This document shows, piece by piece, positions 3,295 to 49,188 of a stretch of DNA of 64,000 nt. The position numbers and the translations under genes are program-made. The notes beneath the pieces were generated by a model. That model ran no database searches, had not been told where the DNA came from, and saw nothing but the letters and a program-made list of their open reading frames with translations. The stretch is taken from assembly GCA_934255135.1 (NCBI GenBank), contig CAKQMV010000008.1:1-64000 (forward strand). Reading direction: 5' to 3'. Source of the DNA: an uncultured Clostridia bacterium (GTDB taxonomy: Bacteria; Bacillota; Clostridia; Peptostreptococcales; Anaerovoracaceae). Every line of letters starts with the position of its first letter. The first letter of the stretch is position 1.

Positions 3295-3318
3295 GGTAGT
3301 TATAGAAAGGTTAAAGAA

Positions 3319-4089: not shown

Positions 4090-4099
4090 GAGGTGCAGG

Positions 4100-5350: not shown

Positions 5351-5365
5351 AGGAGCACTTGATTA

Positions 5366-6004: not shown

Positions 6005-6026
6005 GAAATTCTCAGGAGAACAGACA

Positions 6027-6848: not shown

Positions 6849-6883
6849 ATAAACACTACACATAAGGAAAGGATTATTTCAAA

Positions 6884-8188
6884 ATGAGAAACTATACGAC
6901 ACAGATGGATGCCGCACGTAAGGGAATTATCACTCCAGAAATGAAGGCTGTTGCCAAGAAGGAGTACAGAACTGAGGAGGAGATCAGAGATCTAGTAGCT
7001 AGAGGTCAGGTTGCAATCTGCGCTAACAGACTGCACACTTGCATCGATCCTAATGGTGTTGGTTCAATGCTCCGCACTAAGATTAACGTAAACCTCGGCG
7101 TATCTCGTGACTGTAAGGACTACGATATTGAGATGCAGAAGGTTATGGCTGCAGTAGATATGGGAGCTGAGGCTATTATGGATCTTTCATCACACGGAAA
7201 CACTCAGCCTTTCCGTCAGAAGCTCACTTCAGAGTGTCCTGCAATGATCGGTACTGTTCCTGTTTACGACAGTGTTATCCACTACCAGAGAGACCTTGCT
7301 ACTCTTACTGCTAAGGATTTCATCGATGTTATTCGTCTTCACGCTGAGGACGGAGTTGACTTCGTAACTCTTCACTGCGGAATCACTCGCAAGACTATTG
7401 AGCAGATTAAGAAGCACAAGAGAAAGATGAACATCGTATCAAGAGGTGGTTCACTCGTATTCGCATGGATGAGCATGACTGGTGAGGAGAACCCATTCTA
7501 TGAGTACTACGATGAGATCCTCGACATCTGCCGTGAGTATGACGTAACTATTTCACTTGGTGATGCTTGCCGTCCAGGATGCCTTGCTGACGGAAGTGAC
7601 GTATGCCAGATCGAGGAGCTTGTAAGACTTGGAGAGCTCACTAAACGTGCCTGGGAGAAGGACGTTCAGGTTATGGTAGAGGGTCCTGGCCACATGCCAA
7701 TGGATCAGATTGAGGCTAACATGAAGATGCAGCAGACTATCTGCATGGGAGCTCCTTTCTACGTACTCGGACCTATCGTAACTGATATCGCTCCTGGCTA
7801 CGACCACATCACTTCAGCAATCGGTGGAGCTATCGCTGCTGCAAGCGGTGCTGCATTCCTCTGCTACGTAACTCCTGCAGAGCACCTTGCTCTTCCAGAT
7901 GTTAATGACGTAAAGCAGGGAATCATCGCTTCAAGAATCGCTGCACACGCTGCTGATATCGCTAAGAAGATTCCTCATGCAAGAGACATCGACGACAAGA
8001 TGGCTGACGCAAGAAGAACATTCGACTGGGATACTCAGTGGGAGTGCTCAATCGACCCAGAGACTGCTAAGTCAATCCGTGACAGCAGAGCACCAGAGCA
8101 CGACGACACTTGTTCAATGTGCGGTAAGTTCTGTGCAGTAAGAAGCATGAACAAGGCACTTAACGACGAGTATATTGATATTCTGTAA
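6884..8188 (+). CDS. thiC: Phosphomethylpyrimidine synthase ThiC
   Basis: 434-aa protein with a C-terminal CSMCGKFCA cluster motif and overall ThiC similarity. Confidence 0.9.
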
Positions 8189-27376: not shown

Positions 27377-28078
27377 ATGATAAAGATGAATACTAAAGAT
27401 AGAAATTATATATACGTGGTTCTTTCGAGGACACCTTCTAAGTTCGCGTGGGCGATAAGAACGTTCGGGCGGATTAACTACAACCATGCATCCATTGCTT
27501 TTGACAGCGACCTTAAGGAGCTCTGGTCATTTGCCCGTAAGATGAACAATCTTCCGATAGATGCCGGCGTTGTAAGGGAGTTTCCGGAGAGATTCACCTT
27601 AAACAAAGTGAATAATATTCCGATCAGAATCTACAGGGTTCCGGTTAATCCCGGTCAGTACAATCTGATTCGTAAACGTGTAATGGAGCTTCATAACGAT
27701 ATGGGGTACCATTATAATATCTTTTCAGCTCTTTTATATCCTATCGCAGGTGGCTTTAAGACAGACAGAGCATATACATGCAGTGAGTTTGTTTCAGCAC
27801 TTCTCGATGAGTATACCGATGTTGCAATTACACGTCCTTGTGAAGCTATTCTTCCTGAGGAGCTTCACGGAATTCTGGAATCTTTCCTGATGTATGATGG
27901 TAATCTTCTTGACTACAGGGAATTTGAACCTGTGGAATCATCATTCTTTGATTATGTGAGTCCATGGAAGGTTGTTGCAGTTACGGTAACGATTTTTGCA
28001 GTCATGGCATACAGAGGTGCAGGCAGGAGAGCTAGGGAATTGAGCAGCTTAAGAGACAGCTGGAGAGATTTCTGGTAA
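27377..28078 (+). CDS. Hypothetical protein, possibly a permuted papain-like (YiiX/C92-like) hydrolase
   Basis: 233-aa soluble protein with a conserved-looking Cys context (AYTCSEFVSALL). The family assignment rests on memory only. Confidence 0.3.
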   Translation: MIKMNTKDRNYIYVVLSRTPSKFAWAIRTFGRINYNHASIAFDSDLKELWSFARKMNNLPIDAGVVREFPERFTLNKVNNIPIRIYRVPVNPGQYNLIRKRVMELHNDMGYHYNIFSALLYPIAGGFKTDRAYTCSEFVSALLDEYTDVAITRPCEAILPEELHGILESFLMYDGNLLDYREFEPVESSFFDYVSPWKVVAVTVTIFAVMAYRGAGRRARELSSLRDSWRDFW

Positions 28079-28100: not shown

Positions 28101-28457
28101 ATGAGCGTCATTATTGAATACGGCGAGGATGAGAAGCTGCAGCATGAGCACGAGCATGAACATAATCATGAACATAAACACAAGCACTCACACGAGCATT
28201 CGCCTGAGGAGAAGAAGAAGCAGCTTAACAGAATAGCGAGAGCAATCGGTCATCTTAAGGCTGTGCAGGGCATGATTGAACGCGATGAGGACTGCTCAGA
28301 TATTCTTATTCAGCTTTCTGCTGTAAGATCTGCGATTAACAACCTCGGCAAGGTTATCATCGACGAGCATCTCACACACTGCATCTATCATGCGATAGAA
28401 GAGGGCGATGATACGACGGTTAAGGAGTTCCAGGAAGCAATAAGGAAATTCATATAA
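28101..28457 (+). CDS. CsoR/RcnR-family metal-sensing transcriptional repressor with a His-rich N-terminal extension
   Basis: Helical C-terminal core with candidate ligands Cys (DEDCSD), His (IDEH) and Cys (THC), giving a C-H-C fingerprint. The N-terminal tail HEHEHEHNHEHKHKHSHEH has 9 His in 20 aa. Confidence 0.75.
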   Translation: MSVIIEYGEDEKLQHEHEHEHNHEHKHKHSHEHSPEEKKKQLNRIARAIGHLKAVQGMIERDEDCSDILIQLSAVRSAINNLGKVIIDEHLTHCIYHAIEEGDDTTVKEFQEAIRKFI

Positions 28458-28544: not shown

Positions 28545-28573
28545 TTGACTATAGAAGCATAAGAACCTACAAT
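28545..28573 (+). promoter_or_regulatory. Promoter (TTGACT, 17 nt, TACAAT) driving the nfl-hyp operon leader
   Basis: The sequence reads ttgactatagaagcataagaacctacaat. Confidence 0.5.
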
Positions 28574-28579
28574 ATAGGT

Positions 28580-28730
28580 ATCTGATACGAAACGTAACAC
28601 TTGAGTTGAAGATACGCCATGCAATATAGCTTAAAGGATGTCGGTGAACCGGCCAGAGGCTGCTTTACCAATCGTCCGCTACGATATGTAATACAAGAGG
28701 CAGTATCTTCAATTGCGAAGATACTGTTTT
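28580..28730 (+). ncRNA. Roughly 150-nt 5' leader ending in a strong intrinsic terminator. Candidate riboswitch or attenuator of unknown class.
   Basis: A structured region (ggatgtcggtgaaccggccagaggctgc…cgtccgc) is followed by cagtatcttc-aattgc-gaagatactg and a T6 run (28690-28730). This lies 50 nt before the TTG start of the first operon gene. Confidence 0.4.
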
Positions 28731-28778
28731 TTATTTTGTTATATAGAAGAGATTTTGTTATATAGAGGAGGTCATCCC

Positions 28779-29027
28779 TTGAACGGAAATAGAATTGCGA
28801 TAATCGGAATAATAATCGAGAAGAGCGAATCGGTTGAGAAGGTTAACGCTCTTTTGCACGACTACAGTGATGTAATTGTTGGAAGAATGGGTGTTCCCTG
28901 CAAGGATAGGGGAGTCAGCATTATAAGCGTGGCTCTCGATGCAACACAGGATTCAATCAATACGCTTGCGGGAAAGCTTGGTCGAATCGATGGTGTTTCA
29001 AGCAAGGCGCTATGCGTGTCGAAGTAG
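28779..29027 (+). CDS. TM1266-like small regulator (the family called putative iron-only hydrogenase system regulator, with an ACT/NikR-C-like fold)
   Basis: 82-aa ORF from TTG at 28779 with a perfect GGAGG 7 nt upstream (LNGNRIAIIGIIIEK…VIVGRMGVP…ISVALD). The six-frame ORF from 28713 has no RBS. Confidence 0.5.
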   Translation: MNGNRIAIIGIIIEKSESVEKVNALLHDYSDVIVGRMGVPCKDRGVSIISVALDATQDSINTLAGKLGRIDGVSSKALCVSK

Positions 29028-29039
29028 TGGAGGAGACAG

Positions 29040-29786
29040 ATGAGAAGGATAGCAATATACGGCAAGGGCGGTATAGGCAAGTCAACAATCTGCTCTAATC
29101 TTGCATCAGCAATGGCTGCGGACGGATTTAAGGTAATGCAGATCGGCTGCGACCCGAAGGCAGATTCAACAGCACTTCACAGGAAGGGGGTTAAGCTTCC
29201 TACAGTTCTTGACACAATGAGAGCGAAGGGAAGTGACTGGGGCCTTGATGAGGTTGTACATGTAAGCGATGATGGAGTTTTCTGCATCGAAGCTGGTGGA
29301 CCGGTTCCTGGACTTGGCTGTGCCGGCAGAGGAATCATCACAGCACTTGAGAAGCTTGAAGAGAAAGGCCTGTATGAGAAGTATGAGCCTGATGTGATTC
29401 TATACGATGTTCTCGGAGACGTTGTGTGCGGAGGCTTCAGTATGCCAATGAGATCAGGCTATGCAGATACTGTATATGTTGTGACCTCAGGTGAGAACAT
29501 GTCAATCTATGCGGCGGCTAACATTGCGATGGCTATAAGCAACTTCAGAGGTAGAGGATATGCGAAGCTTGGAGGTCTTATCCTTAACAGAAGAGATGTC
29601 AGAAACGAAGAGGATAAGGTAAGAGAGCTTGCAGCAGACCTTAAGACAGAGATTATTTCAGATATCCCAAGGTCATCTGATATCCAGGATGCGGAGGATG
29701 CCGGCGAGACTATCGTAAGACTGATGCCAGGCTCTGAGGTATCAGAGATTATTAAGAAGACTTCACGCAGAATCCTTTCTGAATAG
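29040..29786 (+). CDS. NifH/BchL/CfbC-family nitrogenase Fe-protein-like ATPase (copy 1)
   Basis: Walker A (GKGGIGKST), cluster cysteines (GLGCAGRG and VVCGGFSMPMR), and NifH-like length and pattern. Confidence 0.85.
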   Translation: MRRIAIYGKGGIGKSTICSNLASAMAADGFKVMQIGCDPKADSTALHRKGVKLPTVLDTMRAKGSDWGLDEVVHVSDDGVFCIEAGGPVPGLGCAGRGIITALEKLEEKGLYEKYEPDVILYDVLGDVVCGGFSMPMRSGYADTVYVVTSGENMSIYAAANIAMAISNFRGRGYAKLGGLILNRRDVRNEEDKVRELAADLKTEIISDIPRSSDIQDAEDAGETIVRLMPGSEVSEIIKKTSRRILSE

Positions 29787-29854: not shown

Positions 29855-32380
29855 ATGAAGGATATGATTAATACAGAATCATTAAGAATAGAAGATACGA
29901 CTTTCCCAGCTCCATGGAAGAGTCAGCTGGAGTTCAGCTCTCCAGCGAGAGGAACGTGGAACATCGTTCACACGGGAATGCTTATTCCGGAAAGCCACCA
30001 GATTTTTGTCTGCGCGAAGGGCTGCCTCAGAGGTGTAGTTCTTACGGCTGCCGAGATGGGCGAGATGGGAAGATACTCGGCACTTGAGATCAGAGAAGAG
30101 AATGTTCTTAACGGCGATATGGAGACAATGATGATAGACGGCGTTACAGATATCATCGAGAAGCTGCCGGTAAGACCTCGTGCTATAGAGCTTTTTATAA
30201 GTTGTCAGCATTTCTTCTTAGCATATGATCAGAAGCTTGTATTCAGAACTCTTAAAGAGAAGTTTCCGGATATAAGCTTTGTGGACTGCTACATGATTCC
30301 AACTCTTCGTAAGAGCGGAATTACACCGGATCAGAGGATGAGAGTTCAGATGTACAGAATGCTCGAGAAGGGACATATGTCACCTTCGAAGATAAACCAC
30401 ATCGGCTCGAATCACAGGATCAGAAGCAGCTCGGAGATATATGCTTTTGCCCGTAGAAACGGATACATTTTAAGATCCATTCACGACTGTGAGAGCTTCG
30501 ATGAGTACCTTGAGATGGCAGATGCGTGCTTTAACATCGTGACTGAGCCGCTTGCACTTAAGGCTGCAGAGGATATGGAAGCAAGACTCGGTATTCCTTA
30601 CGCATATGTGCCTAACGTGTTCAGATTCTCAGATATCGAGGAGGCTTACAGGAAGCTTTCTCTTGTAACCGGCGATCTTGCACCATACAGAATGCATGCT
30701 CAGGTTGAGATTGACAAGACTAAGAAACTTATCGGTGACGCTGAGATCGTGCTTGATTACACATTTACATTTAGAACGCTGAACCTGGCTAGATTCCTTG
30801 TCGAAAAGGGCTTCAACGTGACCGATATTTACATCGACAGCTTCCTGCCTGAAGATGAGGATGACTGGAAGCACCTTAAAGAGAACAGACCTGGCATAAT
30901 GATTCACCCGACGAACAGACCTTCGATGAGATTTGAGAAGGCCGGAAGAACTGATGCGATTGCACTCGGACAGAAGGCGGCTGAATTTGCGGGAACAGAT
31001 CATTTTGTGAATATTGCTGAAGGTGGCGGACTTTTCGGCTTTGCTGGAGTAGCGGAGCTTATGGAGCTTATGCGAGATGCATATATAAATGAGAAGGACA
31101 GACGAGAGGTCATTCAGAAGAAGGGCTTTAATCAGAGAAGTCTTCTAGATGAATCGGAGTGCCTATGCTCATCGGAGCCTCGAATCAGCAGTCTTACCTC
31201 AACAGGAATCAGAAGCTCTGCGAGCCTTATACCGACATATTCATCGGACGAATTCGGTGCATGCTCATCGCTTTATGAGCTCGGCGGAATGGTAGTAATG
31301 CACGATGCATCGGGTTGCAATTCAACTTATACAACTCATGACGAGCCAAGATGGTACGACCACCAGAGCATGATATATATATCGGCAATTTCTGAGATGG
31401 AAGCTATCATGGGAGACGACGATAAGCTGATCAAGGACATGACAGATGCGACAGAGGAGCTTCATCCAAGGTTTGCGGCAATCGTCGGAGCACCGATACC
31501 TTACATGACAGGAATCGACCTCGATGCGATTTCAGAAATCCTTAAATCAAAGCTTGAAATTCCGGTTTACGGCATCCACGCCAACGGAATGAATGATTAT
31601 ACGAAGGGAATAGAGATGGCCCTTGAGGCACTGACAGACGACCTCACGGAGGCACCGAAGGAAAATTCAGGCGCACACGACAGGGTCAGAGTCAACCTCC
31701 TTGGAATCACGCCACTTGATTACGCAAATCCATCGAATATGGATGAGCTTTATAAGTGGCTTTCCGAAAACGGCATGATCAAGCACTCAAGCTTCACGAT
31801 GGATTCATCAATCGAAGAGATCAAAGATGCTGCGAATGCTGATGTGAACCTGGTTCTGTCATCGGGAGGCCTTAAGACTGCGAAGAAGTTCAAGCGCCTT
31901 TACGGAATTCCATATGTGATAGGAGCACCTTTGGGCCGTGGATATGCGACGGAGCTTGCGAAGAATCTTAAAGACGCAGCTTCGGGCCAAAAACCTGGTT
32001 CAGCGACATGTGAGCGTCCCGCTTCGGCCGATGTTTTAATCATCGGAGAGGCTGTAACATCAGTTTCGCTCGCAAGAGCACTCGAGCTTGACCTTGGAAT
32101 AAGAGCAAGCGTTGCAGCAACAGTAAGCTGCAGCGATGAAATATTAAGAGCGGGCGACAGATTTACACCATGCGAGGATGCTGTGATAGAGGCTTTAGAT
32201 GAGCTTAAACCAGGAGCTGTAATTGCAGATCCTTTCTACATGGCAATCGTGAATGAGAAGACATTATTTATACCACTTCCTCACGAGGCCTTCTCAGGAA
32301 GAATTTTTGATAAGGAAGCACCGTGTCTGGTTAACACAGACCTTGATGCACTGCTTCAGGTAGGAGAGATAAATGCTTAA
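29855..32380 (+). CDS. Nitrogenase component-1-like oxidoreductase: a single-chain fusion of NifD/E-like (N-terminal half) and NifK/N-like (C-terminal half) domains
   Basis: 841 aa. The N-terminal half is homologous to ORF 33115-34413 ([15 protein letters not shown]…[13 protein letters not shown] vs [15 protein letters not shown]…[13 protein letters not shown]). The C-terminal half is homologous to ORF 34414-35466 ([18 protein letters not shown] vs CDAGGCTGNVCGFDEPRW). Confidence 0.7.
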
Positions 32381-33122
32381 ATTAGCGGTATATGGTAAAG
32401 GCGGAATAGGAAAATCAACAACAACGGCAAATCTTGCAGCGGCTTTTGCAAGCCTCGGCAAGAAGGTAATCCAGATAGGTTGCGATCCTAAGGCTGACTC
32501 GACAATGAACCTTCTTTCAGGAACTCCTGTTCAGTCAGTAATGGATTACATGAGAATTAACGATTGCGAGCCGGAGAGACTCGACGAGATTGTAAAGGAA
32601 GGCTACGGCGGAATCGTCTGCATCGAGACAGGCGGACCTACACCGGGACTTGGCTGCGCAGGAAGGGGAATCATAACAACATTCTCACTTCTTGAAGACC
32701 TCGAGCTCTTTGAGACTTACAAGCCTGACGTTGTGCTATACGACGTACTTGGAGACGTTGTGTGCGGAGGCTTTGCAGCACCTATAAGAGAGGGTTACGC
32801 AGAAGAGATTCTTATCGTAACATCAGGCGAGAAAATGGCGCTTTATGCGGCAAACAATATCGCCAAGGCTGTCGAGAATTTCGAGGACAGAGGATATGCG
32901 AGCGTTCGCGGAGTCGTTATGAACAGACGTAACGTTGAGAACGAGGAAGAGAAGGTCAAGGCCTGGGCTGATGAGGCGGGCTTCCCCGTTATCGCAGACA
33001 TTCCAAGAAGCAACGATATTATTAAATACGAAGATCAGGGCATGACAGTTATCGAAGGCGATAGAAGCCTTGAAGTGAGTCAATGCTACATAAAACTTGC
33101 AAAGAGGTTACTTAATGAATAA
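32373..33122 (+). CDS. NifH/BchL/CfbC-family nitrogenase Fe-protein-like ATPase (copy 2)
   Basis: [17 protein letters not shown] and [12 protein letters not shown] motifs. ATG overlaps the upstream stop (ATGCTTAA). Confidence 0.85.
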
Positions 33123-34413
33123 ACAGGATGCATTTTATATAACAGCAAGAGATCTTGCAGACGGAGGAATCGAAGGCGTTCCGTCAGAGCTTAAGTCGCA
33201 GGATCACCTAATCTACAGCTCACCTGCAGCGCTGAGCTTTAACTCACCTGGAGCACAGGGCTTCGGTGTCAAAAGAGCGGGTCTTGCAGTCCCAGGCTCC
33301 GTGATGCTGCTGGTTGCTCCGGCGTGCTGCGGACGTAACACAACTATGCTTGCAGAGCTCGGTTCATATGCTGACAGATTCTACTATCTTCTTCAGGATG
33401 ATACAGATATCATCACTGGAAGACACCTTAACAGAATCTCACAGGCAGTTAAGGATGTGGCAGATTTCCATGAAGAGTCGACTGGAACAAGACCTAACGT
33501 GGTAATGATCTGTATCACATGCGTAGACGCACTTCTCGGAACAGATATGGACAGAGTCTGCAGAAAGGCTTCAGAGTTTGCAGGACTTCCTGTTCTTCCA
33601 TGCTATATGTATGCGCTTGAAAGAGAGGGAAGAGTTCCTCCGATGACAGCGGTAAGAAGAACAGTGTACCAGCTCCTCGAGCCAAGGGAGAAGAAGAACA
33701 CAACAGTAAATCTTCTCGGACACTTCGCACCGCTTAACGATGATTCAGAAATCTACGAGCTTCTGAGAGGCATCGGAGTTAAGAAGATTAACGAGATATC
33801 AAGATGCGAGGATTTCGATGAGTATCTTGGAATGGCTGAGGCGAACTTCAGTATTATCCTGAACCCAGAATCAAGACTTGCTGCAGAGGATATTGCCAAA
33901 AGACTTGAGATTCCATCAGTCGAGCTTACAAGAATGTACAGAATCGACAAGATCAGAAAGCAGTATCAGCTCTTTGCGGGAGCTATCGGAGCTAAGATAG
34001 ATGACTCTAAGTTCTACGAGGAAGCGGCGGCGAAGGTAGAAGCTTTTGCCCGTGAGAACAAGGGTAAGAGGGTTGCAATCGGAGAGTGCATGAATGCGGA
34101 TTCATTCGAGCTTGCACTTGCAATGACTGAGTACGGACTTACAGTAACTGAGATTTACGGCACAGTTTCGGCTGAGAGAATGCCATATATCAAGATGCTT
34201 GCAGAACTTAGTCCTGAGACAAGAATCTACACCAATCTCGAGCCGTCAATGCTTTATTACGATTCAAGCGAGCTTCCATGCGACTTTACCATCGGAATTG
34301 ATGCCGGATATTATCATCCGGATGCGCCTAATGTTCCTTGGAATCTCGAGGTTCAGCCATGGGGCTACAACGGTCTTATCCGTCTGATTGAAGAAATAGA
34401 AGGAGTGCTCTAG
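33115..34413 (+). CDS. Nitrogenase component-1-like subunit (NifD/NifE/BchN-like)
   Basis: About 432 aa, paralogous to the N-terminal half of the 841-aa fusion. Start at MNKQDAFY (AGAGGT RBS) overlaps the nifH-like stop. Confidence 0.7.
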
Positions 34414-35466
34414 ATGAAGGGTTTACTAAGAGTTATGTCACCGTTTGCGCCTGACCAGTCAGGTGCGGCTTCGGTGTTTTACGATATGAATGCGATTACA
34501 GTCATATGCGATGCCGGCGGATGTACCGGAAACGTGTGTGGCTTCGATGAGCCGAGATGGCAGAAGAATGCGAGACCGATTTTCAGTGCGGGACTTCGTG
34601 ATATGGATGCGATTCTCGGAAGAGATGACAGACTGGTCGACAAGCTTAAGCTTGTTTCAGATAAGAGCGATGCGGATTTTGCTGCTATAATCGGAACTCC
34701 CGTGCCGGCAGTTATTGCAACTGACTTTAAGGCTCTCAAAAAAATGGCATCAAAGCGTTGCGGCATCCCAGTTGTAACGTGTGAGTGCACAGGAACTAAT
34801 CTCTACGACAAGGGTGAGGAGATGGCTTACCTCGAGCTTATGAAGACGTTCACAAGGGACATGGATGTGTGCGAGGGAAGAGTCGGAGTCCTCGGTGCGA
34901 CACCACTTAACTTCAGCGATATTGAAGCTGACAAGCTTATCAGAAAACACTATATGGAAGAAGGCTTTAGCGAGGTGCTTGTCTACGGCATGGGCGACGG
35001 ACTTGATTCGGTAAGAATGGCGGCGTCATGCGAGATGAATATCGTAGTTTCAGCTTCGGGACTTGCTCCGGCAAGATGGCTTAAGAAAAATTATGGGACA
35101 CCTTACAGAGTTGAGTGCCCTTTTGCAGGCGAGGCTGCAGCTAAGGCGGCAGGAGTGCTTAAGCATTCAAAGGTTCTTATCGTACATGAGCAGGTTGCTG
35201 CAAACAGCCTTAGAGATGCGATGGAGGACTGCGACGTTACAGTAGCGACCTTCTTCACACTCGATAAGAACATTGCAAATGAAGGCGATGTGCTGGTGGA
35301 GACAGAGGCTCAGTTTATAGAGCTTGTCGAAAATGGAGGCTACGATGCAGTTATCTGCGACGAGCTTCTTAGAAGAGCCGTAAAGGATGGAACCTACGGC
35401 ATTTGGATTAACCGAAGACATTTTGCAGTCTCCGGAAACCTGGAGGAAGGATTATGCGAACTCTAA
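34414..35466 (+). CDS. Nitrogenase component-1-like subunit (NifK/NifN/BchB-like)
   Basis: 350 aa, paralogous to the C-terminal half of the fusion. Cys-rich CDAGGCTGNVCG and VVTCECTG segments. Confidence 0.7.
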   Translation: MKGLLRVMSPFAPDQSGAASVFYDMNAITVICDAGGCTGNVCGFDEPRWQKNARPIFSAGLRDMDAILGRDDRLVDKLKLVSDKSDADFAAIIGTPVPAVIATDFKALKKMASKRCGIPVVTCECTGTNLYDKGEEMAYLELMKTFTRDMDVCEGRVGVLGATPLNFSDIEADKLIRKHYMEEGFSEVLVYGMGDGLDSVRMAASCEMNIVVSASGLAPARWLKKNYGTPYRVECPFAGEAAAKAAGVLKHSKVLIVHEQVAANSLRDAMEDCDVTVATFFTLDKNIANEGDVLVETEAQFIELVENGGYDAVICDELLRRAVKDGTYGIWINRRHFAVSGNLEEGLCEL

Positions 35467-37760
35467 GAATCTGCGTGTACGGAATAGTGCAGGGTGTAGG
35501 CTTCAGACCTTTTATTTCAAGACTTGCTGACAGACACGGAATACTCGGAAGCGTGGCGAACAGAGGTTCATATGTTGAGATTTTTGCCTGCGGAGAGGAC
35601 GATGAGCTCGATGCTTTTAAGGCTGGAATTGAAGCTGAGGCTCCACCAAGATCTGCAATTCTTAAAGTAACAAGCAGAGATATATCGGATAAGGCTCCTG
35701 CTTATCATGATTTTCAGATAATAGAGAGCACTGCGGAGAGAGGCGACATCTTCGTATCACCGGATATTGCGACATGTCCGGAATGCAGAAGAGAGCTTTT
35801 TGACAGTGGCAACAGAAGATATATGCATCCGTTCATTAACTGTACGGCATGCGGACCTAGACTTACGATTCTCGATGCGATGCCTTATGACAGGGAACGT
35901 ACGAGCATGAAGGAATTTCCAATGTGTCCGGAGTGCGAGTTTGAATATACTCATCCGGAGACGAGAAGATATGACGCGCAGCCCGTGTGCTGTAACGACT
36001 GCGGACCAGAGGTCTATATAGTCGGAACTGATATCAGAGGAAGAGATGCGATTACACGCGCAAGACAGGCCGTTATTGATGGTGAGATTGTTGCGATAAA
36101 AGGAATCGGAGGCTTTCACCTCTGCTGCGATGCGACTTCGGAGGAGGCTGTAGCAAGACTCAGAAGGCTTAAGAGAAGACCTGCTAAGCCATTTGCAATT
36201 ATGGCTAGAAGTCTTGAAGCGGTGGATAGAATCTGCAGCATTCCATCAGATTCTGTAAGAGAGCTTCTCGATGGACACAGCAAGCCGATTGTTCTTCTTG
36301 AGAGAATAAATGAAGGCGTGCTCGCACCATCGGTTGCACCTGATAATCCGAATGTTGGTGTTATGCTTCCATACGCACCGGTTCAGATGCTGATGTTTGA
36401 CTATAACGACGATCTTGACATCGGAACAGATTATTTTGTAATGACGAGCGGAAATGTATCTGGAGCACCGATCTGCAGAACAGATGAGGATGCAGTAGCT
36501 GAGCTTTCGGATTTCTGCGATGTGATATTAAGTCACAACAGAACGATAAGGCTTCGTGCGGACGACTCTGTTGTGGATGTATATAAGGATGAGCCTTACA
36601 TGATCAGACGTTCAAGAGGCTTCGCTCCTCTGCCTGTTATGACAGAAGAGGAGATTGAGGCATCAGTTCTCGCTGTTGGAGGAGAGCTTAAGAACACATT
36701 CTGCATCGGAAAGGATCAGCTGCTCTATGAATCATCGTTCGTCGGCGATATGGCTGATGTAAGAACGGTAAGAGCTCTGAATGAGTCAATAGACAGAATG
36801 GCAGAGCTTCTTGAGACAGACCCTGAGGTGGTGGTGTGCGACCTTCATCCTAAATACAATACGACCGAGGTTGCTGAAAGATATGCAGATAAGCATAATA
36901 TTCCTCTTATCAGACTTCAGCATCATTATGCTCACATTCTGTCGTGCATGGCGGAAAATGATTATACAGACGAGGTCATCGGCCTGTCTATGGACGGAAC
37001 AGGCTATGGAACAGACGGAACTATCTGGGGTGGCGAAGTTCTCCTGACAAGAAGAGACGGCTTCGAGAGACTTTCTCATATCGATCCGTTTATGCAGGCC
37101 GGCGGTGACCTCTCTGCAAAGGAGGGCTGGAGAATTGCAGCTTCTATGATAGGTTCGCTTTTCGGTGATGATGCAGAGGTAATCTCTGAGAATCTCGGAA
37201 TCTGCAGCGAATCAGAGTTTAAGCTTATTCGCACAATGACAGAGCGAGGAATTAACTCTGTGAAGTCGACGAGTGCGGGAAGACTCTTTGATGCAGTAAG
37301 TGCGATCCTTGGAGTAAGAAGAGCGTCAAGCTTCGAGGGTGAAGCGGCTACAACACTGCAGTTTAGAGCAATTGAAGCTAAGGGCGAATCAAAGTACCCA
37401 GGCCAAAACCGTGGTGACGGTTCGATAGCTTCCGGTGAGATTGTTAAATGGCTCGTAGGAGAGATGCTTCAGGCAACCGATAAAGATCAGACGCAGCGGG
37501 AGCTTGCGTGGGCCTTCCACGAAGCTTTTGCCCGTGAGATGGCGGACTCGGCACTTTACTGGTCGGAGAAGACAGGAATAAAGACAATAGCACTAAGCGG
37601 CGGTGTTATGCAGAATACTCTGCTGCTTGGAATGCTTGAAGAATACCTTGAGGAGAGAGAACTTAAGGTTATAAGACATCATATGATTCCACCGAATGAT
37701 GGCGGAATCGCGCTTGGGCAGGCGCTATATGCCCGTTGGGAGGTAGGAAAATGTGTGTAG
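35454..37760 (+). CDS. hypF: Carbamoyltransferase HypF ([NiFe]-hydrogenase maturation: acylphosphatase, 2 Zn fingers, YrdC and Kae1-like domains)
   Basis: 768 aa. Acylphosphatase start (ICVYGIVQGVGFRPF), two CxxC x18 CxxC fingers, YrdC-like and C-terminal Kae1-like regions. Confidence 0.85.
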   Translation: MRTLRICVYGIVQGVGFRPFISRLADRHGILGSVANRGSYVEIFACGEDDELDAFKAGIEAEAPPRSAILKVTSRDISDKAPAYHDFQIIESTAERGDIFVSPDIATCPECRRELFDSGNRRYMHPFINCTACGPRLTILDAMPYDRERTSMKEFPMCPECEFEYTHPETRRYDAQPVCCNDCGPEVYIVGTDIRGRDAITRARQAVIDGEIVAIKGIGGFHLCCDATSEEAVARLRRLKRRPAKPFAIMARSLEAVDRICSIPSDSVRELLDGHSKPIVLLERINEGVLAPSVAPDNPNVGVMLPYAPVQMLMFDYNDDLDIGTDYFVMTSGNVSGAPICRTDEDAVAELSDFCDVILSHNRTIRLRADDSVVDVYKDEPYMIRRSRGFAPLPVMTEEEIEASVLAVGGELKNTFCIGKDQLLYESSFVGDMADVRTVRALNESIDRMAELLETDPEVVVCDLHPKYNTTEVAERYADKHNIPLIRLQHHYAHILSCMAENDYTDEVIGLSMDGTGYGTDGTIWGGEVLLTRRDGFERLSHIDPFMQAGGDLSAKEGWRIAASMIGSLFGDDAEVISENLGICSESEFKLIRTMTERGINSVKSTSAGRLFDAVSAILGVRRASSFEGEAATTLQFRAIEAKGESKYPGQNRGDGSIASGEIVKWLVGEMLQATDKDQTQRELAWAFHEAFAREMADSALYWSEKTGIKTIALSGGVMQNTLLLGMLEEYLEERELKVIRHHMIPPNDGGIALGQALYARWEVGKCV

Positions 37761-37957
37761 GATTAGCGGCTAAGGTTGTTGGTATCAAGGATGGTGCGGC
37801 AGTTGTTGATGCATCAGGTGCAAGACGTGAGGTATCAGCTGAGATGATCGAGAATCTTGAACCGGGCGATTACGTAATGGTTCATGCAGGAATTGCAATT
37901 GCGAAGATTACTTCTGACGATACAGAAGAGACAGATGAACTGATGGAGATGCTCTAA
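37751..37957 (+). CDS. hypC: Hydrogenase assembly chaperone HypC/HupF
   Basis: Begins MCVGLAAKV (the essential Cys2). About 68 aa. ATG at 37751 with a GGGAGG RBS. Confidence 0.8.
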   Translation: MCVGLAAKVVGIKDGAAVVDASGARREVSAEMIENLEPGDYVMVHAGIAIAKITSDDTEETDELMEML

Positions 37958-39015
37958 TGGAAGAAAGAAAGCTTACAGCGAGAGAAATAATTGAGCAGTA
38001 CGACGGCCCGAAGATCAGAATTATGGAGGTGTGCGGAACGCATACACACGAAATCTTCAAGCTTGGAATCCGTAATCTGCTCCCGGAGAATATAGAACTT
38101 ATTTCGGGACCCGGATGTCCGGTGTGCGTAACTCCTTGCGGCTTTATCGACATGGCGTGCGAGCTTGCACTCGATAAGGGCTGTACAGTATGCACCTTCG
38201 GAGACCTTATAAGAGTTCCGGGAACCGAGATGAGCCTTGCAGATGCGAGAACTAAGGGTGCTGAGATTAAGATTGTGTATACAGCACTCGATGCGCTTGA
38301 TTTTGCAAGAAATAATCCTGATAAGGACGTTGTGTTCCTCTCTGTTGGATTTGAGACCACAACTCCTGCGGCCTGCCTTACTGTAAAGAAGGCTAAGGAA
38401 GAGGGAATCACCAACTACTCGATTCTTACAGCAAACAAGACTATGCCTAACGCGTACAACGCTCTTAAGGGAAGTGCAGATGCCTTTCTTTACCCTGGTC
38501 ACGTAAATGCGATCACAGGTGAAGAGGATTGCGAGAGACTCGCTTACGAAGAGGGAATCTCAGGCGTTATCGCAGGTTTTACGGCCAAAGAGCTTCTTAC
38601 TGCAATCGCGGTAATAATCCGCAGACTCGAGAAGGGTGAGCCGTTCTTCGTGAATTGCTATCCAAGAGTTGTAACAAGGGAAGGAAGCAAGCCTGCAAAG
38701 AAGCTTATAGACGAGACAATGGAGCTTACAGATTCAACATGGAGAGGACTTGGAGTTATCCCTAAATCAGGTCTTAAGCTCCGCGAGGAATACAAGGATT
38801 ACGATGCATCATACAAGTATGATGTGCCTTACACAGACGGCAAGCCTAATCCGGGATGCCGCTGCGGAGACGTGCTTCAGGGAAAGTGCAAGCCTTGTGA
38901 CTGTTCGCTTTTCGGCAAGATGTGCACACCACTTCACCCGGTTGGAGCTTGTATGGTAAGTAACGAAGGAAGCTGCTCAGCGTTCTATCAGTATGGAGGA
39001 ATAATCAATGGATAA
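37957..39015 (+). CDS. hypD: Hydrogenase formation protein HypD
   Basis: CGTHTHEI (CGxH), GPGCPVC and C-terminal Cys motifs. TAATG coupling to hypC. Confidence 0.85.
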   Translation: MEERKLTAREIIEQYDGPKIRIMEVCGTHTHEIFKLGIRNLLPENIELISGPGCPVCVTPCGFIDMACELALDKGCTVCTFGDLIRVPGTEMSLADARTKGAEIKIVYTALDALDFARNNPDKDVVFLSVGFETTTPAACLTVKKAKEEGITNYSILTANKTMPNAYNALKGSADAFLYPGHVNAITGEEDCERLAYEEGISGVIAGFTAKELLTAIAVIIRRLEKGEPFFVNCYPRVVTREGSKPAKKLIDETMELTDSTWRGLGVIPKSGLKLREEYKDYDASYKYDVPYTDGKPNPGCRCGDVLQGKCKPCDCSLFGKMCTPLHPVGACMVSNEGSCSAFYQYGGIING

Positions 39016-40012
39016 TGTAGTAAAGCTAGCTCATGGTGGCGGCGGAAAGCTGACATCTGAGCTTATCGAGAAGGTATTTAAGAAGCATTTTGCAAACGAG
39101 GCATTTACAGCAGACGATGCTGCAGTTTTAAACATCGGAAGTGGAAACATCGCAATGACTACAGACGGATTTATCGTATCACCGTTTGAGTTCCCTGGCG
39201 GAAACATAGGAAAGCTTTCAATCTGCGGAACTGTTAACGACCTTGCCTGCATGGGAGCAAAGCCTCTTTATATGACATGTGCTTTTGTCATCGAGGAGGG
39301 CTTCCCAATGGACAAGCTTGAGGAGATTGCTGCTCTCATGGAGAAGACTGCTGCAGAGGTTGGCGTTAAGATCGTTGCCGGTGACACTAAGGTTGCAGGT
39401 AAGGGTCAGGTAGACAATGTGTTTATCACAACTACAGGAATCGGCGTTCTGACTGAGGGTGTTAAGACTTCAGGTGCATTTGCAGAGAAGGGTGACAAAA
39501 TCATCGTTACTGGCGATGTTGGACGTCACGGCTGCACAATCCTTCTTGAAAGAGAGGACCTTGGAATCGAGGCTGATATCACGAGCGACTGTGCACCGTT
39601 GTGGAACACTGTAAAGTCTGTAATGGATGCGGCTCCTGACGTTCATGTAATCAGAGATGCTACAAGGGGCGGAGTTGGAACAGTTCTTTACGAAATCGCC
39701 GGCGAGAGTAACGTCGGAATCAGAATTGAGTCAGCAGATATTCCTGTTGATCCTGCTGTAGCAGGCGTATGCGGAATGCTCGGTCTTGATCCGCTCTACC
39801 TTGCCAACGAGGGAACAATGGTTATTATTGCACCTGCTTGTAGTGCTGATGCAGTGCTTACTGCACTTCATAATGATAAGTACGGAAAGAATGCAGCTAT
39901 TATTGGAGAGGTTACTGACGAGATGGCAGGAAGCGTAGTTCTCAGGACTGAGATCGGAACAGAGACAATGCTTCCACAGCCAGGCGGAGAGCTTCTTCCA
40001 AGAATCTGCTAA
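39008..40012 (+). CDS. hypE: Hydrogenase maturation factor HypE (AIR-synthase-like carbamoyl dehydratase)
   Basis: PurM-like fold motifs and the diagnostic C-terminal …PRIC. Confidence 0.85.
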   Translation: MDNVVKLAHGGGGKLTSELIEKVFKKHFANEAFTADDAAVLNIGSGNIAMTTDGFIVSPFEFPGGNIGKLSICGTVNDLACMGAKPLYMTCAFVIEEGFPMDKLEEIAALMEKTAAEVGVKIVAGDTKVAGKGQVDNVFITTTGIGVLTEGVKTSGAFAEKGDKIIVTGDVGRHGCTILLEREDLGIEADITSDCAPLWNTVKSVMDAAPDVHVIRDATRGGVGTVLYEIAGESNVGIRIESADIPVDPAVAGVCGMLGLDPLYLANEGTMVIIAPACSADAVLTALHNDKYGKNAAIIGEVTDEMAGSVVLRTEIGTETMLPQPGGELLPRIC

Positions 40013-40036: not shown

Positions 40037-41092
40037 ATGAATAATCTTGAGAAGCTAAAAGAATTAGTGCTCAAGCTTAAAGACGAAAAGAGACTCGATA
40101 AGGATGAGTGGATACTCCTTATCGAGTCACAAAGTCCTGAGCTTATGGAATTTGTCTCTGAACACGCAAGAAATGTAAGAGAAGCTCACTACGGCAAGGA
40201 TGTCTATGTGAGAGGTCTTATCGAGATAAGCAATTATTGTAAGAATGACTGCTACTACTGCGGAATCAGAAAGAGCAATCTTAATGCGCACAGGTACAGA
40301 CTCTCTAAGGAGACGATACTTGACTGCTGCCGTGAGGGCCATGAGCTTGGCTACAGGACTTTTGTCATGCAGGGCGGCGAGGACATGCACTATAGCGATG
40401 ACCTCGTCTGCGATATAGTTTCATCCATCAAGGCAGAATTTCCAGACTCTGCAGTGACTCTTTCAATAGGAGAGAGGTCACGCGAGAGCTATGCAAGATT
40501 TAAGAAAGCAGGTGCTGACAGATATCTTCTTAGACATGAGACTGCATGCGAGGCTCATTATAGAAAACTTCACCCAGATGAGCTTACTCTTGCGAACAGG
40601 AAAAGATGCCTGTATGATTTAAAGGAACTCGGCTTCCAGGTGGGAGCCGGTTTTATGGTGGGCGCGCCATACCAGACCGTAGATAATCTTGCAGAGGATA
40701 TGATTTTCCTTAAGGAGCTTAGTCCTCATATGGTCGGCATCGGCCCGTTTATTCCACACCACGACACACCGTTTAAAGATATGCCGGCGGGAAGTGCTGA
40801 GCAGACGCTTTATTTTCTCAGCCTTACAAGACTGATGCTTCCATCAGTTCTGCTTCCGGCGACAACTGCACTTGGTACAATCTCTGACAATGGAAGAGAG
40901 CTTGGAATGCTTGCCGGTGCAAACGTTGTTATGCCCAACCTTTCGCCAGCGGAGGTGAGAGGCGATTATCTTCTTTATGATAACAAACTGTGCACCGGAG
41001 ATGAGGCTGCGCAGAATCTTGCTAATCTTAATAAGAGAATGGAGTCGGTCGGCTTTAATATTTCAATGACTCGTGGTGACTGGAAAGAATAA
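40037..41092 (+). CDS. hydE: [FeFe]-hydrogenase H-cluster radical SAM maturase HydE-like
   Basis: 351 aa. CKNDCYYCGIR matches the HydE-type CxxxCxYCGxR motif rather than BioB CPEDCxYC. BioB/HydE-like length. Confidence 0.65.
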   Translation: MNNLEKLKELVLKLKDEKRLDKDEWILLIESQSPELMEFVSEHARNVREAHYGKDVYVRGLIEISNYCKNDCYYCGIRKSNLNAHRYRLSKETILDCCREGHELGYRTFVMQGGEDMHYSDDLVCDIVSSIKAEFPDSAVTLSIGERSRESYARFKKAGADRYLLRHETACEAHYRKLHPDELTLANRKRCLYDLKELGFQVGAGFMVGAPYQTVDNLAEDMIFLKELSPHMVGIGPFIPHHDTPFKDMPAGSAEQTLYFLSLTRLMLPSVLLPATTALGTISDNGRELGMLAGANVVMPNLSPAEVRGDYLLYDNKLCTGDEAAQNLANLNKRMESVGFNISMTRGDWKE

Positions 41093-47479: not shown

Positions 47480-48937
47480 TTATCTGTTCACAGTCTCAAA
47501 TCTCTCTGTGATCTCAAGGTGTGTTGCTTCGTCAGCATGGCTGTCGATGTCAGCATCCTGCTTAGGTGTGTGCTTCAGACATCCTGCACCACCTGTACAT
47601 CCGCCGCTGCAAGCCATTCCCTCAATGAAGTTCTGAACGAGCAGATCCTTATTAGCTCTTGTAAGGATTGGCTTAATCTTATCAAGTCCTGATACGCAGA
47701 TAGGGTTAACCTCGAACTCAGAACCTCTCTCCTTAAGAGCCTGAACTGCAGATGCAGCTACTCCACCTGAGTGAGCGAAGCGACGACCGAATCCTGTAGC
47801 CTGATCCATCTCGCTCTTCTCCTGCATCTCAACGTCAATCTCTCTGCTGTCAAGAAGTGCAAGCAGCTCCTCAAAAGTGATTACACTGTCAACATATGGT
47901 GAAACGCTATCCTTAAGAACCTCAGCCTTCTTCGCTGTGCAAGGTCCGATAAAGATAACCTTGGCATCAGGATTGTCAGCCTTGATAATTCTTCCAAGCT
48001 CTGCCATAGGTGACAGGTTGTGTGAAATTGAAGGTACGAGGGCAGGGAATCTGTTCTCTACGTACTTTACGAAAGCAGGGCAGCATGATGTAAGAAGGCG
48101 ACCCTTCTCCTCAAGCTCTGCTGACTCCTTGTAAGCTATAATATCAGCTCCAAGAGCTGCCTCGTATACCTCAGCAAATCCGAGCTTTCTGATTCCTGTG
48201 ATAACCTGTCCAAGGTCGACAGGTGCAAACTGTGATGCAATTGCAGGAGCAACAATAGCAATTACAGGATACTCAGTGTTGTCCTTGCTTCCTTTAATGA
48301 TGTCAATTACATCAGCGATATATGATTTGTCAATTGGTGCACCGAACGGACATCTGTTCATGCAGACACCGCATGATGTGCACTTGTCATAGTCAATAAC
48401 AGCCTCACCTGTCTCAGCCATACAGATAGCGTCAGCCTTGCAGGCTTTCTCGCAAGGTCGCTTAAAGTTAGTGATGGCGCTGTATGGGCATGCCTTGGCA
48501 CACTGTCCGCACTCAACGCACTTCGACTTGTCGATTACTGCGTGGTTGTTTTCAAAAGTGATGGCGCCGAGCTTGCATGCTCCCTGGCACTCGTGAGCAA
48601 GACAGCCTCTGCAAAGGTTAGTTACAGTGTGACCTGCCTCAGGACACTCATCACAGATAAGACCGATAACCTCGATAATGTGATCGCTGTTATGGTTCCC
48701 ACCAAGAGCAACTCTGATTCTCTCGGCGAGCTTCGCCTTATCCTTATAGATACAACAGCTTGTTGAAGGTTCATCAGGAAGAATTGTCTTAGCTGCGATA
48801 TCATCAAAAGATCTGAAAATATCTTCGCCTGCCCAGAGCTTTCTGGCAACTTCGGTAAGAACTCTGTTTTTCATGATCTGAACATTGGTGTCAAATTTTC
48901 TGGCATCAAATTTTCTTGCCTCGTCGTATTCTTTCAT
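47480..48937 (-). CDS. hydA: [FeFe] hydrogenase, monomeric, with an N-terminal Cys-rich ferredoxin-like region (group B-like)
   Basis: H-cluster motifs L1 (TSCCPAFV), L2 (GPCTAKKAE) and L3 (EGMACSGGCTGG), plus 2x CxxCxxCxxxCP ferredoxin motifs. Start at MKEYDEARKF (48937) with an AAGGAG RBS; the six-frame ORF extends to 49129. Confidence 0.8.
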   Translation of the reverse strand: MKEYDEARKFDARKFDTNVQIMKNRVLTEVARKLWAGEDIFRSFDDIAAKTILPDEPSTSCCIYKDKAKLAERIRVALGGNHNSDHIIEVIGLICDECPEAGHTVTNLCRGCLAHECQGACKLGAITFENNHAVIDKSKCVECGQCAKACPYSAITNFKRPCEKACKADAICMAETGEAVIDYDKCTSCGVCMNRCPFGAPIDKSYIADVIDIIKGSKDNTEYPVIAIVAPAIASQFAPVDLGQVITGIRKLGFAEVYEAALGADIIAYKESAELEEKGRLLTSCCPAFVKYVENRFPALVPSISHNLSPMAELGRIIKADNPDAKVIFIGPCTAKKAEVLKDSVSPYVDSVITFEELLALLDSREIDVEMQEKSEMDQATGFGRRFAHSGGVAASAVQALKERGSEFEVNPICVSGLDKIKPILTRANKDLLVQNFIEGMACSGGCTGGAGCLKHTPKQDADIDSHADEATHLEITERFETVNR

Positions 48938-49188
48938 TAGTGATCTCCTTTTAGTCAAAATAAAAAGCACGGCCCAATAAATGTGTCGCACTTGGTATTC
49001 ATATTGTTGTGTAATGTAACGATTTTGCGTAAAATTATAGCGTTTTAGCAAAATATGCAAAACACAAGGATTGATAAAATTTAAACAATCCTCGACGATT
49101 ATAACACAGCATATTTTATAAGTAAACACCTTAAGCCTTACATAATCATTGTGATATAATATTTAAGTTAAAGGAGATGTTAATTACA

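Follow-up and report, generated by a model that had tools for sequence, protein, structure and literature searches.

Why do two adjacent sets of nitrogenase-like genes lie among genes for hydrogenase maturation, and what might their products do there? The question is raised by a 64-kb stretch of DNA from an uncultured Clostridia bacterium of the Anaerovoracaceae (contig CAKQMV010000008.1, positions 1 to 64,000; hereafter "the window"), for which we made an open reading frame (ORF) map and scanned the proteins with Pfam and NCBIfam models. Five tightly packed genes, all on the + strand, make up the two nitrogenase-like (NFL) sets. The first set comprises a NifH-like ATPase/Fe protein (NifH1, 248 aa; 29040-29786) and an 841-aa ORF (29855-32380) in which an alpha, NifE-like domain (D1) is joined to a beta, NifN-like domain (K1). 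The second comprises another NifH-like ATPase/Fe protein (NifH2, 249 aa; 32373-33122), a separate alpha, NifE-like protein (D2; 33097-34413, 438 aa from a TTG start or 432 aa from the ATG at 33115) and a separate beta-like protein (K2, 350 aa; 34414-35466). With moderate confidence, we conclude that both sets serve the maturation of a hydrogenase-type Fe-CO/CN cofactor, acting as reductase/scaffold pairs.

A sequence-only reading of positions 29855-35466 had proposed that the two halves of the 841-aa ORF are paralogous to the D-like and K-like ORFs downstream, and that each set has its own NifH-like gene ahead of it. Pairwise comparison bears this out. BLASTP aligned fusion residues 23-360 with D2 (26% identity, E 3e-30) and residues 458-817 with K2 (28% identity, E 2e-42), and the cross-match of D2 with the K1 half was marginal (E 0.015). 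Strings that had been spotted by eye lie inside these alignments (...AAED...RLGIP in the first; the second includes DAGGCTGNVCGFDEPRW). The two NifH-like proteins share 54% identity (E 5e-95), and the gene for the first lies just outside the interval that had been read. The lengths of 841 and 350 aa were as claimed, and that of 432 aa for the D-like protein holds from the ATG at 33115. All four D/K domains match PF00148 above its cut-off of 28.6 (the fusion with 137.9 bits in two stretches, D2 with 87.2 and K2 with 58.7), and both NifH-like proteins match PF00142 (285 bits for NifH1 and 307 for NifH2, cut-off 25). Within each pair, D1 with D2 and K1 with K2, the resemblance is much stronger than to any nitrogenase-family protein of solved structure. 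Judged from these alignments and profile matches, the sets are two paralogous H-D-K units, in which D1 corresponds to D2 and K1 to K2.

The sequence-only reading missed the genes around the two sets. Immediately downstream of K2, all on the + strand, the window encodes the carbamoyltransferase HypF (35454-37760; TIGR00143 739 bits, above cut-off, with both zinc-finger motifs), HypC (37751-37957; 68 aa, recognized by its ORF and its N-terminal MCVG with the essential Cys, with PF01455 found at the homologous position in relatives), HypD (37957-39015; PF01924 451 bits, with CGTHTH, GPGCPVC and GFETT motifs and a C-terminal Cys cluster) and HypE (39008-40012; TIGR02124 423 bits, above cut-off, with a C-terminal PRIC). 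The catalytic motifs of all four were intact on inspection. HydE, the radical S-adenosylmethionine (SAM) maturase of the H-cluster, comes next (40037-41092; TIGR03956 570 bits against a cut-off of 254.6; CX3CX2C motif CKNDCYYC), and a TM1266-like gene stands just upstream of NifH1. The fusion stop overlaps NifH2 by 8 nt and K2 overlaps HypF by 13 nt, and such overlaps (K2/HypF above all) suggest an operon with translational coupling. Neither the window nor the conserved cluster described below contains HypA, HypB, a [NiFe] large subunit or an endopeptidase for maturation.

A scan of one genome per species found relatives encoded in at least 580 species genomes. Hosts include Lachnospiraceae, Ruminococcus (R. 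albus AR67 among others), Oscillospiraceae, Anaerovoracaceae, Clostridium, Coriobacteriaceae, Sutterella, Synergistaceae, Spirochaetaceae and Syntrophomonas. When window proteins were compared by BLASTP with the ORFs of 81 non-redundant loci, the canonical gene order was [TM1266][HydF][HydE]-NifH1-D1-K1-NifH2-D2-K2-HypF-HypC-HypD-HypE, and the same order appeared in called genes with Pfam labels on independent contigs. Among the 44 fully flanked loci, 37 hold D2K2, and HypD is present in 36 of those 37; D2K2 never occurs without Hyp genes. HydE or HydF is found in 24 of the 44, and TM1266 in 31. The region in the window is thus the core of a conserved NFL-Hyp-Hyd cluster found in anaerobes of gut and rumen, and this cluster is built of two modules, one of NifH2-D2-K2 with HypFCDE (module B) and one of NifH1-D1-K1 with TM1266, HydE and HydF (module A). 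The HydE and HydF proteins of the R. albus and Lachnospiraceae NK3A20 clusters are bona fide members of their families (555, 571 and 496 bits on NCBIfam models). In five loci AspA follows HydF, and AspA beside hydF is typical of hyd operons (PMC11736057).

D2 itself is 64-77% identical across Clostridium, Lachnospiraceae, Spirochaetales and Lentisphaeria, and its homologues fall into at least 2569 clusters at 90% identity (E < 1e-20), many of them annotated "NifE" by JGI. Such conservation is unusual for an uncharacterized protein. Of 50 loci in which both DK sets occur, about 16 have just one NifH-like gene, an arrangement that resembles, by analogy, the NifH that serves both NifDK and NifEN. 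Two NFL systems are therefore genetically hard-wired to Hyp and Hyd, both of the known machineries that build Fe-CO/CN units, and this conserved context argues for a role of both sets in hydrogenase-type Fe-CO/CN maturation.

In the scheme that we favor, each NifH-like dimer would deliver ATP-driven, low-potential electrons into its own D/K partner, which would act, like NifEN, as a scaffold for or a reductase of a metal-cofactor intermediate. In module B, HypE and HypF would make cyanide from carbamoyl phosphate, and HypCD would assemble an Fe(CN)x(CO) unit that is passed to, or processed on, D2K2. Module A would then feed HydE and HydF. The product would be an organometallic Fe-CO/CN cofactor, for which the [2Fe] subcluster is the most plausible identity, and the route to it would stand in for HydG or work beside it. 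If HydG is bypassed, D2K2 and then D1K1 would reduce and remodel the unit into the synthon that HydE/HydF normally get from HydG. Which way material flows, by what chemistry and to which client is inferred. That the cluster makes the [2Fe] subcluster of [FeFe]-hydrogenases without any HydG is a narrower idea, and a tentative one.

The Fe(CO)2(CN)(Cys) synthon of the H-cluster is the product of HydG, a tyrosine lyase of the radical-SAM type. We examined where HydG stands in a metagenome scan centered on HydE, which gave the 80 closest HydE relatives, 48 of them with at least 3 kb of downstream sequence. The order TM1266-HydE-HydG-HydF occurred in 20 of the 48 (HydG verified with 965 and 936 bits) and TM1266-HydE-NifH1-D1-K1-HydF in two; no locus had both and 26 had neither. 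When the 31 HydE-bearing NFL loci were added, HydG adjoined HydE in 0 of 33 loci with NFL genes and in 20 of 46 without (Fisher p 2.5e-6). Besides HydE, none of 84 loci held a HydG- or ThiH-like ORF. NifH1-D1-K1 thus occupies the HydG slot between HydE and HydF. NFL-linked HydE proteins are 58% identical to HydG-linked HydE and 59% to other NFL-linked HydE, and so they are ordinary HydE rather than a diverged paralogue. The HydE of the window is 64% identical to HydE genes adjoining HydG, and the HydE tree implies about four switches of context.

Two candidates for HydG within the clusters were rejected. The gap between HydF and HydE in R. albus holds small membrane proteins instead, and in Clostridiaceae BL-3 the radical-SAM gene that follows HypE encodes something other than HydG. 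The insert in R. albus AR67 (L024 6277-8111) consists of three tandem paralogous proteins, 168-222 aa long, which match no family and have predicted membrane segments. In the window, the sole HydG-like radical-SAM protein is the ThiH of a thiamine operon.

Outside these loci, several acetogenic clostridia have HydE and HydF, no recognizable HydG, and HypCDEF without HypAB (PMC9431212), which lends circumstantial support to a HydG bypass. The 120 best matches to D2 from a Clostridium genome included neither C. ljungdahlii nor C. autoethanogenum. With a verified HydG (L104) as query, a search for homologues gave at least 120 matches, and among those listed all were gut sequences of 85-100% identity.

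Several points weigh against the proposed role in Fe-CO/CN maturation. All of its functional support is guilt by association. The missing HydG is weak evidence as a neighborhood signal, because more than half of the HydE loci (the 26 of 48 above) lack an adjacent HydG anyway, and HydG may be encoded elsewhere in cluster-bearing genomes. HypCD makes Fe(CN)2(CO), whereas the H-cluster needs more CO than CN. The window holds neither HydG nor HydF, and the lack of the latter is a further difficulty. Only 2 of the 81 loci have an [FeFe]-hydrogenase gene next to the cluster. Some loci consist of NifH1-D1-K1 with HydE and HydF, without D2K2 or Hyp genes and with an ABC importer of the FecCD/BtuCDF type; distant members in Sutterella, Synergistaceae and Spirochaetaceae have only the NFL genes and an importer. 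From the loci with module A alone and those with an importer alone, it follows that the D1K1 family may act on an imported metal chelate.

This last point leads to the first alternative, in which the NFL sets reduce a substrate, as CfbCD, DPOR or Mar/Isr do, and this substrate is an imported metal chelate, a tetrapyrrole or another small molecule. They would then lie beside Hyp and Hyd genes because regulation (TM1266) or metal economy is shared, and not because the pathway is. A subset of loci fits this, with a BtuF/FhuD-type binding protein after K1, a FecCD-type permease and an ATPase-TM1266 fusion, and NFL genes stand with an importer only in L038, L046, L061, L065, L074 and L077. NFL genes have also been found next to ABC transporters before (Dos Santos 2012, PMC3464626), and the characterized NFL proteins other than nitrogenases all reduce organic or tetrapyrrole substrates (PMC13474568). 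Set against this are the absence of tetrapyrrole, cobalamin and sulfur-assimilation genes from the window and the conserved cluster, and scores on the CfbD, BchN/B and BchY models that lie far below cut-off. An importer-fed reductase also leaves aside why D2K2 never occurs without HypFCDE, with overlaps that suggest translational coupling, and why NifH1-D1-K1 sits exactly in the HydG slot. We consider substrate reduction unlikely for these sets.

In the second alternative, one D/K complex is itself the final ATP-driven metalloenzyme, which receives Fe(CN)2CO from HypCDEF and is for example a hydrogenase-like or CO/CN-processing catalyst, and the other is its scaffold. This is the enzyme-plus-scaffold idea of the sequence-only reading, for which NifDK and NifEN are a precedent. 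No cluster with HypCDEF genes also has HypA or HypB, nor does any have a large subunit or an endopeptidase, so that Hyp needs a client other than a [NiFe]-hydrogenase, and the identity of D2 across phyla is what would be expected of a precise catalyst. The seven to eight conserved Cys of D2K2 and an invariant motif of K1 rich in His, Asp, Cys and Glu also speak for it. However, D1K1 is linked to genuine HydE and HydF, whose client is [FeFe]-hydrogenase, and this HydE has not diverged from canonical HydE. The closest relatives of the sets are the maturases NifE/NifEN and not the catalytic NifD, and no substrate-related genes are conserved nearby. On balance we give this alternative a low probability, and retain a role of both sets in maturation as the better account.

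The metal ligands bear on which cofactors the D/K pairs could hold. We computed conservation over 52-82 homologues per family (82 for D1, 59 for NifH1, 54 for NifH2). NifH1 has the P-loop GKGGIGKS, and its C94 and C130 are conserved in 100% of homologues, as are C95 and C131 of NifH2; in NifH, C97 and C132 bridge the [4Fe-4S] cluster. The conserved Cys are C53, C57 and C117 in D1 and C77, C78, C139, C142 and C155 in D2. K1 conserves C488 and mostly C470, within the His/Asp/Cys/Glu-rich motif that also holds H483 and H495, and K2 conserves C37, C42 and mostly C32, with the motif CDAGGCTGNxCGFDEPRW. Mapping onto NifDK, as the sequence-only reading had suggested as a check, places D1 C57 and D2 C77/78 at NifE C62 (NifD C88), D1 C117 and D2 C142 at NifE C124 (NifD C154), and K1 C488 and K2 C37 at NifN C44 (NifK C95), where K1 C488 corresponds to the Cys of NifN "HGAQGC". 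At the P-cluster positions, Cys is therefore kept at 2+1 of 3+3, and the NifK C153 motif is replaced in K by "GTPVPAVI" and "GAPIPYM" stretches. The position of the iron-molybdenum cofactor (FeMo-co)/L-cluster Cys (NifD C275/NifE C250) is Thr in D1 and Asn in D2, and that of NifD H442, read manually, is a gap in D2 and Ala/Glu in D1; both positions are approximate, as they come from low-identity profile alignments. Because the 2+1 Cys are kept and the FeMo-co/L ligands are absent, we infer [4Fe-4S]-type clusters at the alpha/beta interface, along with extra family-specific ligands. Neither D/K pair would carry a P-cluster or an M/L-cluster.

Family models place the proteins in the same region of the superfamily. 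On the NifE model TIGR01283 they score 75, 67 and 44 bits against a cut-off of 505, and on the NifD/VnfD/AnfD models 18-51 bits against cut-offs of 444-823. Among BchB/N/Y models, with cut-offs spanning 420-512, the scores are 28-40 bits for BchB (cut-off 490), 18 for BchN (420) and 20 for BchY (425). CfbD (TIGR03282) gives 30 bits against 268. The two NifH-like proteins do nearly as well on the CfbC as on the NifH model, with 296-310 bits over the two, and fall short of either cut-off (296 and 302 on CfbC NF033200, cut-off 402); on BchL they score 185-212 (cut-off 345). An analogy to BchLNB/BchXYZ, also raised by the sequence-only reading, finds no support, given the DPOR/COR and CfbD scores and the lack of tetrapyrrole genes. 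Compared with all PDB sequences, the single proteins had their best match, at about E 5e-6, to NifE. Family profiles matched best to NifE for D2 (E 7e-16) and to NifE/NifEN for K2 (E 2.5e-11), followed by NifD and then BchB. The fused GmNifEN 9i0g was the top match of the fusion both by profile (E 5e-25) and by fold (9i0g_A, E 1.9e-24), and the fold search returned only NifEN, NifDK, VnfDK and BchNB chains. Chains of 9d9u and 9fmg, described as "Nitrogenase", were weak profile matches (E 5e-5 to 7e-14). On superposition with GmNifEN the domain folds match but the overall TM-score is low (0.34, with a root-mean-square deviation of 28 Å), and the inter-domain geometry predicted for the fusion should not be equated with that of NifEN.

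These data dispose of most of the case for a nitrogenase. That the sets are an N2-fixing or a Mar/Isr-type, sulfur-compound-cleaving relative with P- and L/M-cluster cofactors is suggested by their membership of PF00142 and PF00148 and by public annotations that read "nitrogenase component 1". Yet the C275 position holds Thr or Asn, there is no His at H442, only 2+1 of the 3+3 P-cluster Cys are present, and the Nif/Vnf/Anf and NifE scores are a small fraction of the cut-offs. No NifB, NifE, NifN, NifEN, NifV or sulfur-metabolism genes were found in the 64-kb window. Moreover, 23% of 501 rumen genomes are "NifH-positive", and rumen N2 fixation is almost nil (PMC6776011). Since the FeMo-co and full P-cluster ligands are absent and the closest relatives are NifE/NifEN, the system does not fix N2, as the sequence-only reading had already held, and a nitrogenase or Mar/Isr function is very improbable.

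The 841-aa ORF raises the separate question of whether the fusion is real. D1 corresponds to residues 1-423 (29855-31123, delimited by BLASTP to D2 and by the AlphaFold2 model), the linker to residues ~424-455 (31124-31219) and K1 to residues ~456-841 (31220-32380, by BLASTP to K2 and PF00148). Full-length fused homologues of 812-1075 aa were found in many independent assemblies at 34-96% identity (including 96%, 68% and 64%). Aligning 21 of them showed good conservation throughout the D and K domains, whereas the linker forms gap-rich, non-conserved columns of variable length and sequence. The AlphaFold2 model of the fusion has a mean predicted local distance difference test (pLDDT) score of 81.7 and a predicted TM-score of 0.84, with two confident domains and a linker of which residues 424-443 are predicted to be disordered (pLDDT < 50). 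Among the 81 non-redundant loci, D1 and K1 are fused in eight and separate in 72. In the split relatives the distance from the D1 stop to the K1 start is -29 to +201 nt, and the genes mostly overlap or lie a few bases apart. The D1 tree implies at least four independent origins of the fused state and groups the window with L005 and L006, both fused, at mutual identities of 62-75%. The ORF is thus a genuine alpha-beta fusion, as had been claimed, and the fusion is a minority, recurrent and lineage-specific state, not a defining trait. Recurrent fusion also marks D and K as obligate partners. An assembly or sequencing artefact, in which a lost stop or frameshift joined two genes, could arise by a single error given how closely most split relatives are spaced, but fused homologues in independent assemblies, a fusion shared within the window clade, the repeated fusion events and an in-frame, variable linker between two confidently folded domains make its probability negligible.

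Other fusions were seen among the relatives. D2 and K2 are fused in five loci (L001, L022, L026, L034 and L055) and NifH1 and D1 in three (L026, L034 and L085). In Lachnospiraceae NK3A20 both DK sets are 941-aa fusions, with one NifH-like gene only.

The TM1266-like gene encodes a small ACT/NikR-C-like protein (28780-29027, + strand; above cut-off on PF21699, with 108 bits, and on TIGR03959, with 112), which may regulate how [FeFe]-hydrogenase is matured. Its likely start is the TTG at 28780 behind the ribosome binding site AGAGGAGG; the ORF lister placed the start at 28713. In the loci with module A alone, AspA stands after HydF and the importer ATPase is fused to a C-terminal TM1266 domain (L073 4728-5834; also L076, L078, L079, L082, L083, L009 and L071), and the same loci have a BtuF/FhuD-like binding protein directly after K1. 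By analogy with the C-terminal domains of MetN and ModC, this suggests that TM1266 domains are ligand-sensing regulatory modules.

Upstream of the TM1266-like gene, on the + strand, a consensus scan found the promoter-like site TTGACT-17-TACAAT (28545-28573). It is followed by a leader of ~200 nt and a 16-bp terminator-like hairpin with a T-run (28695-28732), read from the sequence. The segment GAAGATACG (~28608) could compete with the 3′ arm of this hairpin, in a layout like that of an attenuator or riboswitch. An Rfam search gave no match for the leader upstream of the cluster, and the hairpin showed no sequence-level conservation in the other loci compared. A riboswitch ahead of the cluster was rejected on this basis; the sole riboswitch found was a thiamine pyrophosphate (TPP) riboswitch elsewhere in the window (RF00059, 63 bits; 2292-2399, + strand), which precedes the thiamine operon (2659-8188; ThiF, ThiG, ThiH, ThiE, ThiD and ThiC).

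Other genes flank the cluster in the window. Directly upstream is a metal-sensing repressor of the CsoR/RcnR family (28101-28457, + strand; PF02583 92 bits) with a His-rich N-terminal tail, HEHEHEHNHEHKHKHSHEHS. The CsoR-like gene is not kept beside the NFL cluster in other loci, but CsoR-like genes occur near HydE in the metagenome loci L117 and L125. A 233-aa ORF without a Pfam or NCBIfam match (27377-28078, + strand) lies between a pair of ABC-2-type transporter genes and the CsoR-like gene. On the other side, 24 nt after HydE, is a fused permease-ATPase gene of the ABC exporter type (PF00664 and PF00005; 41117-42856, + strand), which is not conserved elsewhere.

The window also encodes an [FeFe]-hydrogenase catalytic subunit, 6 kb downstream of the cluster on the - strand (47480-49129; PF02906 200 bits). 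It has the H-cluster motifs TSCCP, GPCTAKK (PCxxK) and MACSGGC (MACxxGC) and two ferredoxin-like CX2CX2CX3C motifs, in a group-B-like pattern. Translation probably starts at Met65 (MKEYDE), so that the ~64-aa N-terminal extension of the ORF would be untranslated. This hydrogenase is a possible client of the cluster, and the link is weak because adjacency is not kept in other loci.

If both sets do mature an Fe-CO/CN cofactor, the nitrogenase superfamily would have a new biosynthetic role and the H-cluster an alternative route. Should the tentative HydG bypass hold, nitrogenase-family proteins would be maturases of a hydrogenase, and the [NiFe] and [FeFe] maturation pathways would be merged. 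That would account for the many "pseudo-nifH" genes in Clostridia from gut and rumen and for the "missing HydG" of some clostridia. "Pseudo-nifH" genes are known to distort surveys of diazotrophs (PMC8597730). An alternative route to the H-cluster would also be relevant to rumen and gut hydrogen metabolism and to the heterologous production of hydrogenases. The window and its ~580 relatives provide a concrete hypothesis that is open to experiment, for which the recurrent D-K, D2-K2 and NifH-D fusions are ready-made single-chain constructs for structural and biochemical work.

How do the two sets compare with systems already described? Group VI NFL genes, of Elusimicrobia, Gracilibacteria and Myxococcales, have many radical-SAM and B12-binding genes nearby. 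Judged by context, the sets differ from that group of Elusimicrobia in having HydE as the sole radical-SAM gene and Clostridia and gut anaerobes as hosts. The Mar/Isr systems (Groups IV-C and IV-F), judged by ligands and gene context, are set apart by the 2+1 Cys pattern and by the lack of a NifB-like gene and of a sulfur context. For DPOR/COR (Group V), the BchL/B/N/Y scores are below cut-off and no tetrapyrrole genes are near. CfbCD (Group IV-B) is similar in having an ATP-dependent NifH-like reductase and a PF00148 component with a simple [4Fe-4S] cluster that act in cofactor biosynthesis. However, CfbD is homomeric, whereas here distinct D and K are always paired, the CfbC and CfbD scores are below cut-off, and there is no tetrapyrrole context.

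NifEN holds its interface [4Fe-4S]-type cluster by NifE C62 and C124 and NifN C44. It is the closest solved relative of the sets, being their best profile and fold match, with the same alpha/beta architecture, a NifH-type ATPase partner and a natural covalent alpha-beta fusion (9i0g). The proteins of the window are nevertheless not NifEN: identity is 13-18%, the TIGR01283 scores are far below cut-off, there is no Cys at NifE C250, the partners NifB, NifX and NifDK are lacking, and the context is Hyp/Hyd and not nif.

The four Hyp proteins have the intact motifs of those in [NiFe]-hydrogenase maturation (HypC Cys2, HypD, HypE PRIC and the HypF zinc fingers). They differ in lacking HypA, HypB, a large subunit and an endopeptidase, and in the coupling of HypF to K2. 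With HydG, NifH1-D1-K1 shares the operon slot between HydE and HydF, downstream of TM1266. There is no homology between them, and tyrosine and SAM contrast with the carbamoyl phosphate (from HypEF) and ATP-driven reduction proposed here. As a hypothesis only, the NFL/Hyp modules could be functionally equivalent to HydG as suppliers of Fe-CO/CN to HydE.

The closest precedent comes from Coprococcus catus GD/7, Dorea longicatena DSM 13814 and other Firmicutes, where twin NifHEN-like sets were described beside proteins of hydrogenase maturation and a role in the assembly of an active-site metallocluster was suggested in one sentence of context (Dos Santos 2012, PMC3464626). Our literature searches for NFL genes linked to HypCDEF, HydE or HydG found only this remark. 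A review of July 2026 lists only sulfur and tetrapyrrole contexts, without Hyp or Hyd, and states that gene context has so far been of little help for NFL function (PMC13474568). Compared with the text of the 2012 paper, the sets of the window match its description of twin NifHEN-like sets, with two linked H-E/D-N/K sets, the 2+1 Cys pattern (alpha-like Cys at NifE C62 and C124, beta-like Cys at NifN C44), no FeMo-co ligands and hydrogenase-maturation neighbors. The same paper reports NifH-NifE fusions and no alpha-beta fusion (PMC3464626). The NFL class is thus known but uncharacterized, and the fusion found here is a new architectural form. The D-K fusion and its recurrence, the two-module wiring, the spread over at least 580 species, the strong conservation of D2 and the positional replacement of HydG are new in the present analysis.

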